Source of the DNA: a virus
Lineage: Duplodnaviria; Heunggongvirae; Uroviricota; Caudoviricetes
Strand: one strand, 5' to 3'
Virus record (IMG/VR): IMGVR_UViG_2713896905_000001
Span: 1 to 6,068 of that record
Length of the DNA: 6,068 bases
The notes beneath the pieces are model-generated. The model saw only the letters and a list, made by a program, of their open reading frames with translations, was not told the DNA's origin and did not search any database. Within the stretch, counting starts at the first letter, position 1. Every line of letters starts with the position of its first letter. Shown piece after piece: positions 1-5,311 of the stretch. The position numbers and the translations under genes were made by a program.

Positions 1-304
1 GAGCGCCGCGCGTTGTTTCCGGTATATCGACTTTGATGTACGGGTTAATTTGTCTGGCGACAGTGGCAAGGTCTTTATTCAGGAGGGCTTTGCATTCTGC
101 TTCGGTATACGTTTTACCGGGCATAATGTCTTTTCCGGTGTGCCCGTAACATACAGTCCATACACCAACGATATCTTTATATGGTATGTAGCTGACACCT
201 TCCAGACCATCGTCACCACTCGGACCAGTGATTAACACAGATGCTATAGCAATAGCCCCGCCACCAATAGCAGCAGCAACGGCTTTTCGTAATGATGGAG
301 GCAT
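1..304 (-). CDS. R: SAR endolysin (phage 21 R-type lysozyme), 5' part only; the CDS runs off the window start
   Basis: Minus-strand ATG at 304-302 overlaps the S stop codon (TAATG). Hand translation gives [45 protein letters not shown]..., a Gly/Ala-rich signal-anchor-release N-terminus typical of SAR endolysins that pair with pinholins. The frame is open to position 1, which is why it is missing from the ORF track. Confidence 0.85.
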
Positions 305-510
305 TATTCACCTCTCGCAGCCTTACGCTTGTCTTCTCTGATTTTGAAATACAGATTTGTCAGATAGGTGAGAAAGCCCAACACAAGGCTTCCAAGCACT
401 CCAATCGCAGCCCACTGTGACGGACTGACCTGATCAAGCCACTGTAAAAACCAGTAGCCAGCGCTGCCGGCAGATGTGCCGTAAGCAACGCCCGTTGTGA
501 TTTTTTCCAT
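304..510 (-). CDS. S: Class II holin, phage 21 S-type pinholin (68 aa)
   Basis: ATG at 510-508 and TAA at 306-304. The 68-aa product [68 protein letters not shown] has two hydrophobic segments and a charged C-terminal tail, and sits immediately upstream of the SAR endolysin with a 1-nt overlap. I recognise it as S21-like from memory. Confidence 0.85.
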
Positions 511-675
511 CTGATATATGTCTCTGCCAGCAGAAAATGAAAGTGACCGGAAACAAAAAAGCCGCCAGTGTAACCAACTGACGGCAACCGCCTGGAACCG
601 TAATTATGTCATTCAGTCTCTGCTAAAAACGCCTGATAACATTCCTGACTCCCTGCTTCAGGTTATAAATAACAC

Positions 676-800
676 AATATATTGACAACATCCGTCACTG
701 TCTGCCAAAAAATGTACTGTCAGGTATAAGTATCGAATGACATGCAACTACCATTTTTAGCCAGCACCTCTCCGACGAAAGTCAGTGCTGGCTGTTTTTT
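676..800 (+). ncRNA. Candidate small RNA unit A (promoter-like box to intrinsic terminator), antisense to the late operon
   Basis: Perfect TTGACA at 682-687 in an AT-rich context, with a TATAAA at 664-669 just upstream, and no protein-sized ORF. The unit ends in a terminator at 759-800. It is a paralogue of unit B: AATATATTGACA, CTGTCTG, an A-run and TTTTAGCCAGC are shared. Promoter assignment and the 5' end are uncertain. Confidence 0.3.
759..800 (+). terminator. Rho-independent terminator, plus-strand orientation
   Basis: Stem AGCCAGCAC (759-767) pairs with GTGCTGGCT (785-793), 9 bp, around a 17-nt loop that has an internal GAC/GTC mini-stem. It is followed by TTTTTT at 795-800. In the minus orientation the hairpin is followed by AAAAATGG, so it is plus-specific. 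Confidence 0.55.
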
Positions 801-844
801 AAACTTAATAAAGCATCTGTAACTGAAACAATCCGCATATTAAT

Positions 845-950
845 AATATATTGACAGGCATCATTGCTGTCTGTGAAAAATACGTCTCCCAAAACATACA
901 AGGCCTTTTAGCCAGCGTCTGCTTTCTGGTCAGTCGCTGGCTCTTTTTTT
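845..950 (+). ncRNA. Candidate small RNA unit B (paralogue of unit A), antisense to the late operon
   Basis: TTGACA at 851-856 preceded by AT-rich TAATAATATA. It shares AATATATTGACA, CTGTCTG, an A-run and TTTTAGCCAGC with unit A, and ends in a terminator at 910-950 whose T-run abuts the nanS-p stop codon on the opposite strand. No ORF is present. Confidence 0.3.
910..950 (+). terminator. Rho-independent terminator, plus-strand orientation
   Basis: Stem AGCCAGCG (910-917) pairs with CGCTGGCT (935-942) around a 17-nt loop, followed by TTTTTTT at 944-950. Relative to terminator A the stem differs (GCAC/GTGC versus GCG/CGC) while staying complementary. Confidence 0.55.
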
Positions 951-952
951 CA

Positions 953-2776
953 TTATGATGCCAGTGCATTTATCTCCAGCACCAGGCTTTCTATCTCAAC
1001 GCCATATGCGGCATTTTTTGTAACATCCGTCAACGTCAGCGCATTCAGTCCCAGAGTCAGAACGTCTTTTATGGCCTGGAATGATGAACCTGCCACACCA
1101 TTCAGTTTCGGGGTAACCGTTGCACTGCCGGCTGTAAACACCAGCTCCATCGTCTGCCAGTCGTTACTGTAGTTCCCGAATTCCCCCAGCTTCGTGTTTC
1201 CTGACTTCCTGTGGTGCATCAGATTCAGTTTGCCGTCAGTGGTCTGAGTGAAGTACGACATCAGGAACGGATTACCGGTCCCCGTCATCGTCACACCATC
1301 AGGAACGGGAGCGTCTGTGTACAGATAAAGCCCCAGCCCGAACTGATTGTTGGTCAGTGCACCGGTAAGACGGAACTTACAGGTCAGCTTTCCTCCCCGG
1401 CTCAGCAGTAAGGATGCATCCGTCACAGGATGCGACAATGTCCAGCTTTTACCGCTCTCTTTGACAATTCTCAGTGCACCATCCGATAACTGAACGCTGC
1501 CATCGGTAATACTCCACCCCTGAGAAGCAACATCGCCGGCTGAGGCCAGAAGCGATATCGATTTCAGGGATGAATCACCTTCTGATGGAGTGTTCTCCGG
1601 TTTTACACCAGCAATAAATGCCTGTGAGCGCCCTGCCTGCGACAGGATAGCCGATGCCATTCTGTCAGCAATAATCCCGCGTCGTGCCCAGGCACTGAAA
1701 TGGCTCGCACGGTCTGCTGACGTCCAGTTGGCCGACGTCCGGGATGCCGCCCCGTAATAACCGGCTGCCACGATATCCGGGTCTTCCGTCGGCTCATTCG
1801 TTGGCGTGTTTTCACCACTGCCATCTGTCATAAAAGGAACAAAGAAAATATTCTGAGCTTCCTTTCCTTTATAAGCGCCATACACCACCTCATATTGTGT
1901 GGCGTACTTCTGTTTCCAGATGTATGTGGTGTCACCACAAATCCACGGCACTTTTTGAGCGCTTCCGCCATGACACTGCGCCGCCATACCGGCAAGGTCG
2001 CTGCGGAACTGCTGCACCATCGACTGGAATGCTGCAGGCTGCTGGGCATAGCCAGCGTTTGTCATATCGAATTCACCCTGCATCCAGCATACCGCCAGCA
2101 GAACATTTTCAGGATTCTTCTCCAGTGCCGCTTTTGTACGCAGTATCAGATCCTGATATAACGGCTTACCCACTCCCCAGCGCGCAGAGTTCTGGCTGGC
2201 CCCCGTAGCTTCACTGAATGTACCATCCGCCCCTGCTGTAAATGCTGAACCGCCACGGGAGCAGGGAACCAGCAGAATCCCGGCATTTTTTGGGATATAC
2301 GGCAGCAGACGTTTGGCGATATGTAAGCCCTGTCCGACACACCCATACTGACCTTTGCTTAAATCTGCTTCAGGGTGACTGAACACACTCATATCCTGCA
2401 CATCATGCAGACAATGATCTGCCGGGATCACATCGTTAAATACACATGCCTCTCCGCCAGGCGTCACCGTACTGCGACGTGCCAGCTGCTTAATACGCGG
2501 CTCAGGCGCATCATATGAATCAGGAAGAGGAATACCCTCACCATAAGACATGGCATTGGACTGGCCGGCCAGCACGACCACGTAGTACCACTCCGGCTCA
2601 GTTGTGCCACTGACCACCACATCACCTTCTGCTGCAATCGCCTGCATCAGGGTATAAGGAGTTATGGCCACAGGGCTACCAAACGGCTGCCAGCCTTCTT
2701 TCAGTTTTTGCGTGAGCTTGTCCGCCAGATCTGATGGCGATGCTGCCTGCACAATATCGTAACGATTAATCGACAT
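953..2776 (-). CDS. nanS-p: Prophage-encoded sialate (9-O-acetyl-N-acetylneuraminate) O-acetylesterase, NanS-p family (SASA/SGNH hydrolase domain), 607 aa
   Basis: ATG at 2776-2774 with a GGGAG Shine-Dalgarno about 7 nt upstream (minus strand reads GGGAGAAACTCGATG), stop TAA at 955-953. The product starts MSINRYDIVQAASPSDLADKLTQKLKEGWQPFGSPVAI (DUF1737-like N-terminus) and contains VLAGQSNAMSYGEG, the Ser-containing block of SGNH/SASA esterases. Position between Q and the lysis genes matches the known NanS-p moron of lambdoid and Stx prophages. The ORF-track extension to 2887 is rejected (see rejected list). Confidence 0.85.
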   Translation of the reverse strand: MSINRYDIVQAASPSDLADKLTQKLKEGWQPFGSPVAITPYTLMQAIAAEGDVVVSGTTEPEWYYVVVLAGQSNAMSYGEGIPLPDSYDAPEPRIKQLARRSTVTPGGEACVFNDVIPADHCLHDVQDMSVFSHPEADLSKGQYGCVGQGLHIAKRLLPYIPKNAGILLVPCSRGGSAFTAGADGTFSEATGASQNSARWGVGKPLYQDLILRTKAALEKNPENVLLAVCWMQGEFDMTNAGYAQQPAAFQSMVQQFRSDLAGMAAQCHGGSAQKVPWICGDTTYIWKQKYATQYEVVYGAYKGKEAQNIFFVPFMTDGSGENTPTNEPTEDPDIVAAGYYGAASRTSANWTSADRASHFSAWARRGIIADRMASAILSQAGRSQAFIAGVKPENTPSEGDSSLKSISLLASAGDVASQGWSITDGSVQLSDGALRIVKESGKSWTLSHPVTDASLLLSRGGKLTCKFRLTGALTNNQFGLGLYLYTDAPVPDGVTMTGTGNPFLMSYFTQTTDGKLNLMHHRKSGNTKLGEFGNYSNDWQTMELVFTAGSATVTPKLNGVAGSSFQAIKDVLTLGLNALTLTDVTKNAAYGVEIESLVLEINALAS

Positions 2777-2868
2777 CGAGTTTCTCCCATGAACAGGAAT
2801 AGAGTAGAAAAGGCCGGAACAGGAACATAACAAAATCACAGAATTAACATCTGCCAGTGGCAGGTTAC

Positions 2869-2895
2869 AAAAAAAAGGCTGCGCCATGCGCAGCC
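2869..2895 (-). terminator. Rho-independent terminator for minus-strand transcription, about 95 nt upstream of nanS-p
   Basis: Perfect GC-rich inverted repeat GGCTGCG (2877-2883) and CGCAGCC (2889-2895) with loop CCATG. On the minus strand it is followed by eight U residues (plus-strand A-run 2869-2876). On the plus strand the hairpin is followed by AAAAATC, so it is minus-specific. Confidence 0.6.
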
Positions 2896-3496
2896 AAAAA
2901 TCTCTAGGAACACGACAATCGGAATTACAACTGTTATGTATGCATGGCCCGGGTCCGCCCCGGTGAATTCAGCATCAGCACCTGAATCTGCGATTACCCA
3001 ATATTCCTGCCCACAGATTACCTATCAACACAGGTGGATTCACCATGCGGCAGTATTTCTAATAAACAGTAAGCAAAAAAATCAAGCATTATTCAGAATG
3101 GTTCTTTCAACACCGACCACTGCAATGTCACAATCCCACGCACCAGCACACCATCAGCCAGTACCGACATCAGACGTCCGATGAAATCCACTGCACCACC
3201 AGAAACAACATGATGGCAGTCATCACAAAGCGTGCACTTTCCACAGGTACTGCTCCAGCGGTAACTGCAGAGCCTGCGCCAGTGGGTAACCAGCCTACGG
3301 AGGAAGTCACACTGACTATCCCATAAACTTATTCCTGAAAGGCTCTGTGGTTGATAACGCCAGACGTGGCGCAAATACAAAAAAGTCCCGCAAAAGCGAG
3401 TCTGGAAAAATAAGGGTGGTGCGTTGTACTGGATTGAACCAGTAACCGATTGCTTAGAAGACAATTACTATGCCATTGGAGCTAAACCAGCATATT

Positions 3497-3571
3497 TGGC
3501 GGGACAGCGTGGACTCGAACCACGATAAGAAGGTTAACAGCCTTCCGTAATGACCTTTATACGACTGACCC
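3497..3571 (-). tRNA. Candidate tRNA (cloverleaf-compatible, anticodon GUU, Asn-like); may be degenerate
   Basis: Minus strand reads GGGTCAG-TC-GTAT-AAAGGTCA-TTAC-G-GAAGG-CTGTTAA-CCTTC-TTAT-CGTGG-TTCGAGT-CCACG-CTGTCCC-G-CCA. It has a canonical T-arm (GG-TTCGAGT-CC), G18G19 in the D-loop, a perfect 5-bp anticodon stem with loop CU-GUU-AA, and an encoded CCA. Weak points are a T-T mismatch at acceptor pair 4-69 and a 4-nt variable loop. Not verified with tRNAscan-SE or ARAGORN. Confidence 0.45.
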
Positions 3572-3572
3572 C

Positions 3573-3617
3573 AATAAAAAAAGCCACCGTTGCAACTTAA
3601 GAGTCACTAACGGCAGC
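3573..3617 (-). terminator. Candidate tR'-like intrinsic terminator in the late leader
   Basis: Minus strand GCUGCCGUU (from 3617-3609) pairs with AACGGUGGC (from 3591-3583) as 9 bp including two G-U pairs, around a 17-nt loop, followed by UUUUUUUAUU (plus 3582-3573). It lies about 35-45 nt downstream of the putative PR' start and directly upstream of the tRNA-like gene. The long loop makes it only a moderate terminator. Confidence 0.35.
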
Positions 3618-3627
3618 TTACCTTCTA

Positions 3628-3657
3628 ATTATGGCTAAATGGATAATTGCATGTCAA
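3628..3657 (-). promoter_or_regulatory. Candidate late promoter PR' (sigma70 -35/-10), overlapping the 3' end of Q; expected site of the Q-utilisation (qut) element
   Basis: Minus strand TTGACA (plus 3657-3652), an 18-nt spacer, then CATAAT (plus 3633-3628) immediately after the Q stop codon. Placement directly downstream of Q matches lambdoid PR' architecture. Confidence 0.45.
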
Positions 3658-4815: not shown

Positions 4816-5311
4816 GCAGCCTCACTTCTGCTGTTTCGCAGGTCTTTAAGTTTCTGTTGGTACTCTGCCTTGATCGCCCTGCACTCTTCGACAGTCCAGC
4901 GATGGCGGTTATGGTCTGATTCGATTTCCTCTACTGCTTCCTGCCCGATGCGGCTAATCAGTTCGACGCGATACGGAACGAGATTTCCGCTTTTGTGCTG
5001 GTTGCACACCACGCATTGCTTGTGAATATTGCGTTCATCAAACCGGAGTTGAGGTGCCGCAGCAGTTGTCCGGTAATGTCCGGCATCCCACTGAGCAGAC
5101 GTGAGCGTTCCGCACGAGATACATGGTAAGTCNNNNNNNNNNNNNNNNNNCGTTTCTTCTCTGCTGCTTTTTCCGCTTTTTCGCGTTCTTTGCTTCGTCG
5201 TTCGAGTGCTAATTGAGTTCCGTGTTCCGGGCAGCACCACCACTGATTTGAGAATGCCGGGTGAAACCATTCCTTGCATATTTTGCATTTCCTTCGCGCT
5301 GGTTTAGCCAT
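4812..5311 (-). CDS. ninG: NinG (Rap) recombination protein, interrupted by an assembly gap of 18 N; the two halves are in different frames
   Basis: N-terminal part from ATG 5311-5309: [53 protein letters not shown], running into the N-run. C-terminal part from 5132 to stop TGA at 4814-4812: [106 protein letters not shown]. Both parts match lambda NinG as I recall it. The central part is missing in the gap. Confidence 0.8.
5133..5150. other. Assembly or scaffold gap (18 N)
   Basis: A run of n characters in the sequence. Flanking reading frames of ninG do not match across it, as expected for a gap of arbitrary length. Confidence 0.99.

Follow-up and report, generated by a model that had tools for sequence, protein, structure and literature searches.

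The region at 3496-2869 of the window (the whole stretch of 6,068 nt that was analysed) very probably holds a decayed moron beside an sRNA gene that is probably still live, both situated in the accessory (moron) slot of the late operon of a lambdoid prophage. Every part of the region has recognisable homologues, and all of them belong to described kinds, so that the region as a whole is fairly ordinary; what is new, modestly, is an allele that is an STnc100/PasD hybrid and has a different seed, and the scar of a tRNA-tRNA crossover. The apparent gap at the toxin slot can be replaced by a complete parts list. The initial annotation had considered a decayed moron remnant, a long structured leader or an unrecognised ncRNA; two of these options are right at once but for separate parts, the moron at 3376-3093 and the ncRNA at 3085-2869. 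The ncRNA is not an unrecognised one, since its family is already described (Rfam STnc100, RF02076; PasD of EPEC), and a reading of the whole region as a remnant gives way to the presence of both a frameshifted annotated gene, tciB, and a known ncRNA family.

Organisation of the late region and of the stx slot

According to the ORF listing all genes of the window lie on the minus strand, and the late transcript runs from high to low coordinates through the following features.

6039-5311, minus strand: Ant/KilAC protein
N run at 5133-5150, minus strand: NinG, the gene containing this run
4815-4144, minus strand: Ser/Thr phosphatase
4153-3635, minus strand: Q, phage-21-type
3657->3628, minus strand: putative late promoter TTGACA-18-CATAAT, near-consensus (11/12 positions, promoter scan)
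3571-3497, minus strand: tRNA-Asn, intact (ARAGORN/Rfam)
3496-2869, minus-strand late operon: region under study
2777-953, minus strand: SASA/nanS-p-type esterase (true start ATG at 2777, end at 953)
510-304, minus strand: class II holin, then lysozyme

The N run of 18 bases inside ninG marks the contig as a scaffolded draft; both sides of this gap are 98-100% identical in relatives.

The putative late promoter overlaps the 3' end of Q and is followed by a long hairpin and a T7 run (3657-3573, minus strand). The segment carrying it is 92.5% identical in phage Sf6, where the annotation reads pR', qut and tR', then tRNA-Asn and tRNA-Thr, and the tRNA-Asn of the window is 92% identical to the Sf6 copy. 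The pR'-qut-tR' arrangement of phage 21 and Sf6 is thus matched by 3657-3573 of the window. Since the studied region lies downstream of tR', it could be transcribed without Q only from promoters of its own.

Equivalence of the slot with that of stx rests on flanking homology to phage 933W. The argO gene of 933W and the terminator downstream of it match window 3472->3360 at 84%, the homology stops at this terminator, where stxA begins, and it resumes at the STnc100 element of 933W (207.7 bits with the Rfam model, 75 nt after stxB), which corresponds to window 3055-2938. The coding sequences of stxAB are absent from the slot, and the sole Pfam family matched among the slot ORFs is DUF3927. A non-Stx prophage therefore keeps the flanks of the stx slot, with an argO-type terminator on one side and an STnc100-type sRNA on the other.

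Occurrence and authenticity of the sequence

An exact look-up of the Q protein retrieved the source contig (GCA_001514905.1) and nine other contigs, eight of which reach the region. Of these eight further copies, one is from another genome assembly, three are from ENA metagenome assemblies and four from Logan assemblies built on public sequencing runs. Window 2860-3640 (781 nt) is 100% identical in 8/8 of them, which thus all share the deletion, the chimeric tRNA and the seed variant described below. The prophage is carried by GCA_032538165.1 as well as by GCA_001514905.1. Identity in eight further independent assemblies means that the frameshift and the chimera are real and cannot be put down to errors of sequencing or assembly. 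Several human-gut metagenome assemblies contain the allele, which is for that reason a circulating one. As all nine copies are identical, they are uninformative on selection on the sRNA.

Reading frames, composition and inverted repeats

No intact ORF exists at 2869-3496, and to this extent the region holds no convincing gene, as had been proposed. The frames previously named were recovered, namely 3093..3464 on the minus strand (123 aa, TTG start), 2936..3184 on the plus strand (82 aa) and 3210..3326 on the plus strand (38 aa), and the ORF listing contains no longer frame within this interval. The 123-aa TTG frame, however, is not devoid of coding homology: its last 30 residues are the true C-terminus of TciB (PF13064, 38.3 bits against a cut-off of 25).

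It is hardly credible that the 82-aa or the 38-aa plus-strand frame encodes a real small protein. Both are open and have ATG starts, PGAP places 'hypothetical protein' features on the equivalent strand in relatives, and prophage PP4 of E2348/69 has an intact one of 132 aa. Such features are, however, flagged as frameshifted, stop-containing or incomplete in O55:H7, E2348/69 PP2, O157:H16, Z1323CEC0004, KA0011 and EJN001, and the two frames are open because they are antisense to the conserved RNA core and to tciB. Neither has a Pfam match.

Recalculation also bore out the C+A-rich plus strand reported at 3100-3330, with C+A at 0.632, a GC skew of -0.26 and an AT skew of +0.27. The mean over 231-nt windows of the whole stretch is 0.523 (sd 0.047), and only 2.5% of such windows, all starting at 2955-3116, reach 0.632; the skew is real but moderate. 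It is explained by the normal composition of tciB, a small hydrophobic-protein gene, intact copies of which have 61-64% G+T on the coding strand.

All three of the inverted repeats reported earlier are present, at 2967-2972/2982-2987 (ATTCAG/CTGAAT), 3427-3432/3439-3444 (TACTGG/CCAGTA) and, 1 nt away from the position first given, 2949-2953/2959-2963 (CCGGG/CCCGG). The TACTGG/CCAGTA repeat is the T-stem of a degenerate second tRNA at 3491-3420, which the initial annotation had overlooked, while ATTCAG/CTGAAT and CCGGG/CCCGG are the sRNA helices P5 and P6. The terminator noticed upstream of the esterase gene is there as well, with an 8-bp stem (2895-2877, seven G-C pairs) and, after it, a minus-strand T8 run.

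A chimeric tRNA pseudogene

3420..3491, minus strand: chimeric tRNA pseudogene (Rfam tRNA, three-way alignment)

The second tRNA scores 28.6 bits with the Rfam tRNA model (RF00005), below the gathering score of 29, and is missed by ARAGORN. Four of the seven pairs of its acceptor stem are mismatched, and its T-loop has lost one base, being shortened to 6 nt from the 7-nt norm. The three-way alignment assigns its first ~19 bases (GCTGGTTTAGCTCCAATGG) to the tRNA-Thr that comes after tRNA-Asn in O55:H7 and Sf6-type prophages. This part comprises the 5' acceptor strand and the D-arm, of the type found in phage 21, Sf6 and O55:H7 prophages, while the anticodon arm (UCU), the T-arm and the 3' acceptor strand ACAACGC are of the argO type (tRNA-Arg of 933W-like phages). 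Coming from different tRNAs, the two acceptor strands cannot pair.

Halves of tRNA-Thr, from the tRNA-Asn/tRNA-Thr array of phage 21 and Sf6, and of argO, from the ileZ-argN-argO array of 933W, are thus both recognisable in the second tRNA of the window, which is unlike either array in being a non-functional hybrid of them. Judged by its sequence, the pseudogene is the scar of a recombination between two kinds of late-region module. At several bases the junction is unlike either parent, which indicates that it is old and no assembly artefact; an assembly chimera was rejected on this ground and on that of its identical recurrence in independent assemblies. The exact junction was not found by an exact-pattern scan of IMG/VR.

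In O55:H7 strain DEC5B (L001 3628-3700), the tRNA-Thr between tRNA-Asn and tRNA-Gly is unannotated by PGAP and uncalled by ARAGORN. It scores 47 bits with the Rfam tRNA model and appears to be already degenerating in that lineage.

Remnant of a tciA-tciB moron

3377..3405, minus strand: hairpin CTCGC-TTTT-GCGGG with a U-tract (5-bp stem; terminator scan 3400-3387 with T-run tail)
3245..3376, minus strand: leader remnant of the tciA-tciB moron (match to L015)
3093..3244, minus strand: tciB (DUF3927) pseudogene (Pfam PF13064, alignment of relatives)
3256-3253, 3244-3242 and 3095-3093, minus strand: tciB signals, namely Shine-Dalgarno GGAG, GTG start and original stop

The hairpin aligns downstream of argO in 933W, PhiR49_2 and O157:H16, and is homologous to an element which the 933W annotation marks, upstream of the stx genes, as a possible rho-independent terminator. 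The sequence around and beyond it follows the comparison locus L015, window 3486->3270 matching L015 377-595. In L015 tciA starts at 622, and the match resumes within tciB (window 3222->2869 versus L015 1072-1442), so that tciA (~430 bp) is missing from the window, with ~48 bp in its place. The closest relatives, O55:H7 and E. albertii, likewise have tciA deleted.

In tciB, one G is absent between 3194 and 3193 (GGTGGT-GCAG), within the conserved domain, and the shifted frame ends at a stop at 3172-3170. The syntenic region of O55:H7 strain DEC5B, with 86% identity, carries the annotation DUF3927 family protein. The extra G is kept in 7/7 relatives that match the pattern across the frameshift site, these being O55:H7, four IMG/VR contigs, a genome contig of E. 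albertii NBRC 107761 and one metagenome contig, although one of the IMG/VR contigs duplicates that of E. albertii NBRC 107761. Scans of GTDB genomes, IMG/VR and JGI metagenomes for the frameshift site found the intact allele only. With the G restored, TciB reads VESARFVMTAIMLFLVVAVDFIGRLMSVLADGVLVRGIVTLQWSVLKEPF and scores 42.9 bits with PF13064 (cut-off 25), and its alignment covers all invariant residues of five TciB homologues. An intact reading frame through the DUF3927 domain is absent from the window, the deletion being present in all nine copies of the allele. A literature search on TciB/DUF3927 returned nothing relevant.

Homology identifies window 3376-3093 as a tciA-tciB moron in decay, tciA having been deleted and tciB frameshifted. 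Intact morons of this kind, encoding a TerB-like and a DUF3927 protein, are found in PPyecE_EH1910, O157:H16 98-3133 and phage JLK-2012; the leader, the tciB sequence, the STnc100 element that follows and the slot after argO are common to them and the window, which differs in lacking tciA and in the frameshift.

It is very unlikely that tciB is still functional, whether because the deletion is a sequencing error, through a -1 slip at GGUGGUG or by a restart at the in-frame GTG (V of VDF). Downstream of the deletion the DUF3927 frame does remain open up to its stop codon; a slip in which the last G is re-read would give ..LVV-A-VDF.. and restore the ancestral protein sequence, and a restart would yield a 33-residue C-terminal peptide. 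But GGUGGUG does not fit the X XXY YYZ slippery heptamer, the eight further assemblies, which come from different projects, exclude a sequencing error, and all seven other tciB alleles with the same flanking sequence retain the G. The earlier loss of tciA from the cassette also fits an ongoing decay of tciB, which is the reading adopted here.

A probable sRNA gene of the STnc100/PasD family

3085-2869, minus strand: putative sRNA gene of the STnc100/PasD family, ~180 nt (Rfam, core model, alignments)
3085-3056, minus strand: inferred promoter-like motif (-35 TTGATT 3085-3080, 18-nt spacer, -10 TAGAAA 3061-3056)
2942..3048, minus strand: structured 5' core (Rfam and covariance model)
3048-3042 with 2948-2942, minus strand: P1 closing helix GCAUGGUG/CACCAUGC, which encloses P2, P5 and P6
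within 2942..3048, minus strand: P5 hairpin GAUUCAG/CUGAAUU and P6 hairpin CCGGG/CCCGG
2896..2941, minus strand: 3' tail, PasD type (alignments A3, A4)
2869..2895, minus strand: rho-independent terminator, PasD-type, GGCUGCGC-AUG-GCGCAGCC then U8 (terminator scan)

The Rfam STnc100 model (RF02076) matches 3078-2902 on the minus strand with 40.0 bits (E 3.1e-6), below the gathering score of 47. A covariance model of the core, built from seven canonical cores with the window excluded, gives the window 74.5 bits (E 1.4e-17), versus 46-54 bits for O55:H7-type copies and 33-37 bits for PasD. In the canonical register the core of the window keeps 7/8 pairs of P1, 7/8 of P5, 5/5 of P6 and 2/5 of P2; the latter helix is broken in this register, and its sole remaining pairing is a shifted 4-bp ACCU/AGGU. 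In the model-fitted alignment 93.4% of cells are paired family-wide, compared with 33-46% when the partners are slid, and ten pairs show compensatory change family-wide, a number reached by 0/500 shuffles of an alignment that was, however, fitted to the structure. The MFE z-score is only -2.1. When RNAalifold was run on a plain MAFFT alignment of the 13 copies, the consensus was poor (16 pairs, -7.6 kcal/mol), the 5' arm of P5 being misplaced in the PasD rows, and the covariance-model alignment was used in its place.

Upstream of the core, a block of the form TTGAYT, 18-nt spacer, TA(A/G)AAA is conserved in PasD1, PasD2, phages 434 and 2B8, O55:H7, PPyecE and O157:H16, and fits a promoter. The predicted start of the window sRNA is G3048; the published estimated 5' end of PasD2 (NC_011601 741157, PMC8550237) maps to the equivalent G, 7 nt past the -10. 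The promoter scan did not call the motif at 3085-3056. Another candidate promoter, TTGATA-17-AATATT inside the sRNA (3028->3000), was rejected, as the region has 6 promoter-like sites and shuffles have 4.6 +/- 2.8.

The segment 3085-2869 might instead be no separate sRNA but a structured 3' UTR or terminator of the moron, or a leader of the esterase gene, present only in the Q-antiterminated late transcript, which is considered unlikely. The segment does share the strand of the late operon and sits between a coding remnant and the esterase gene, its promoter-like motif is weak (-10 TAGAAA), and in Stx2 phages the STnc100 element is located in the stx2 3' region. Yet PasD1 and PasD2, which have the same upstream block, are abundant, discrete, Hfq-dependent RNAs of 172-173 nt in uninduced EPEC. 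In the absence of Q, pR' transcripts end at tR' upstream of tRNA-Asn, so that the PasD RNAs need a promoter of their own, and the published 5' end of PasD2 follows the conserved -10-like hexamer at the distance given above. A separate sRNA gene thus remains the favoured reading. A coding reading of the segment was discarded, as the window contains no minus-strand frame of at least 30 aa there. The record of phage 434 annotates a 62-aa TTG frame running through the sRNA terminator.

Relationship to known sRNAs

PasD1 and PasD2 of EPEC E2348/69 are Hfq-dependent RNAs detected by Northern blot, 172-173 nt long (PMC8550237), and carry a seed, UGUGAG, complementary to a CUCACA motif of RIL-seq targets (PMC8550237 supplementary Fig. 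S5 and tables). STnc100, located downstream of stx2B, overlaps EcOnc27, which is bound by Hfq (PMC12370729, PMC12711010). A 2014 study (PMC4104026) described sRNA genes at the moron site, convergent or co-oriented, and a common ancestor of PasD and STnc100 has been proposed (bioRxiv 10.64898/2026.05.13.724894).

The upstream block, P1 and the terminator GGCUGCGCAUGGCGCAGCC with U8 are shared by the window and PasD1/PasD2 (EcOnc13 in EHEC), and the lengths are similar, ~180 nt in the window versus 172-173 nt. PasD2 also has a DUF3927 gene, the sRNA and a SASA esterase in the same order and on the same strand as the window. The same terminator, with little or no change, is present in PasD1/2, phages 434 and 2B8, O55:H7, E. 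albertii and O157:H16. The sub-threshold scores with the Rfam STnc100 model are likewise alike, 40.0 bits for the window and 37.7/41.4 for the verified PasD1/PasD2, within the 34-41 bits obtained on PasD1, PasD2, phages 434 and 2B8 and O55:H7. Identity between the window and PasD is nevertheless only ~70%. P5 and P6 of the window follow the canonical STnc100 sequence, whereas PasD lacks P6, and at the position of the PasD seed 5'-UGUGAG-3', which is kept in O55:H7, E. albertii, PasD1/2 and phages 434 and 2B8, the window reads AGAGAU (2905-2900), differing at 3/6 positions. This seed variant was not found by an exact-pattern scan of IMG/VR.

With STnc100 (RF02076; EcOnc27, sRNA103) the window shares the late-gene strand, the downstream end of the moron slot and the 5' multi-helix core. 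The position before esterase or lysis genes is the same in 933W, PPyecE, PhiR49_2 and O157:H16. Canonical copies, however, score 140-208 bits, from 140-145 after tciB or argO in two other phages up to the element of 933W, far above the window with its 40.0 against a gathering score of 47. Moreover, the STnc100 tail of 933W shares its terminator with a convergent AsxR gene, whereas the tail and terminator of the window are of the PasD type, and Rfam found no AsxR/AgvB partner in the window. Aligned with both groups, the window copy is intermediate, having an STnc100-like core (P1, P5, P6) and a PasD-like tail and terminator. This intermediate allele offers sequence-level support for the proposed common ancestry of STnc100 and PasD.

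The P6 loop (2949-2963) carries GGA, as GCGGA here and as GGGAGGCA in canonical copies, and resembles a CsrA-binding motif. PasD2 is reported to be a partner in the most abundant CsrA-bound RNA pair (2026 preprint).

Across 13 STnc100/PasD copies (alignment A4, with rows for the window, L001, L003-L005, L010-L013, L015, L017 and L018), one 5' core is combined with at least six unrelated 3' tails or terminators, a diversity which suggests that the scaffold is conserved and the 3' module can be exchanged. In E. coli EJN001 (L018) three copies are packed into 600 nt (728-847, 956-1071 and 1195-1313). The element is matched in 2568/5426 complete E. coli genomes. Routine annotation pipelines would miss the sub-threshold STnc100/PasD sRNA, the frameshifted DUF3927 gene and the tRNA pseudogene.

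Proposed origin and possible function

Recombination within a tRNA gene very probably joined a phage-21-type module carrying Q, tRNA-Asn and tRNA-Thr to a 933W-type module with the sequence downstream of argO. The tciA-tciB moron, occupying the exact position of stxAB in 933W, has lost tciA and carries the 1-base deletion in tciB. The sRNA would be transcribed in the direction of the late genes from its own promoter-like motif, which overlaps the end of tciB, and would end at the strong terminator that immediately precedes the esterase gene.

A promoter, expression, Hfq binding and any targets are inferred for the window allele. If PasD1/PasD2 and EcOnc27 are taken as models, the sRNA would be made in the lysogen, would bind Hfq via its terminator and U-tail, and would base-pair with mRNAs of the host or of prophages by way of the single-stranded tail just before the terminator. 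Since this tail differs from the PasD seed, the set of targets would differ as well. The change of the seed could also mean decay rather than retargeting.

A wider interpretation is possible, if on balance doubtful, in which the window allele is a natural hybrid sRNA that combines an STnc100 core and a PasD-type tail with a new seed. Prophages might then retarget one scaffold by recombinational swapping or mutation of a short 3' seed cassette, short conserved RNA genes serving as crossover points, as in the chimeric tRNA 350 nt upstream. The allele is in any case a natural seed variant usable for testing target change in prophage sRNAs.

Antisense units downstream of the esterase gene

The interval from the stop codon of the esterase gene to the holin gene contains two tandem sRNA-like units (680-950, plus strand), which are antisense to the late operon. 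They have TTGACA -35 elements at 682-687 and 851-856 and plus-strand terminators at ~771-812 and 928-950, and gave no match to the Rfam AgvB and AsxR models. Over 401 nt this spacer shares 86% identity with the PasA-encoding spacer of E2348/69, and the probe sequence published for PasA matches the window at ~775-800.
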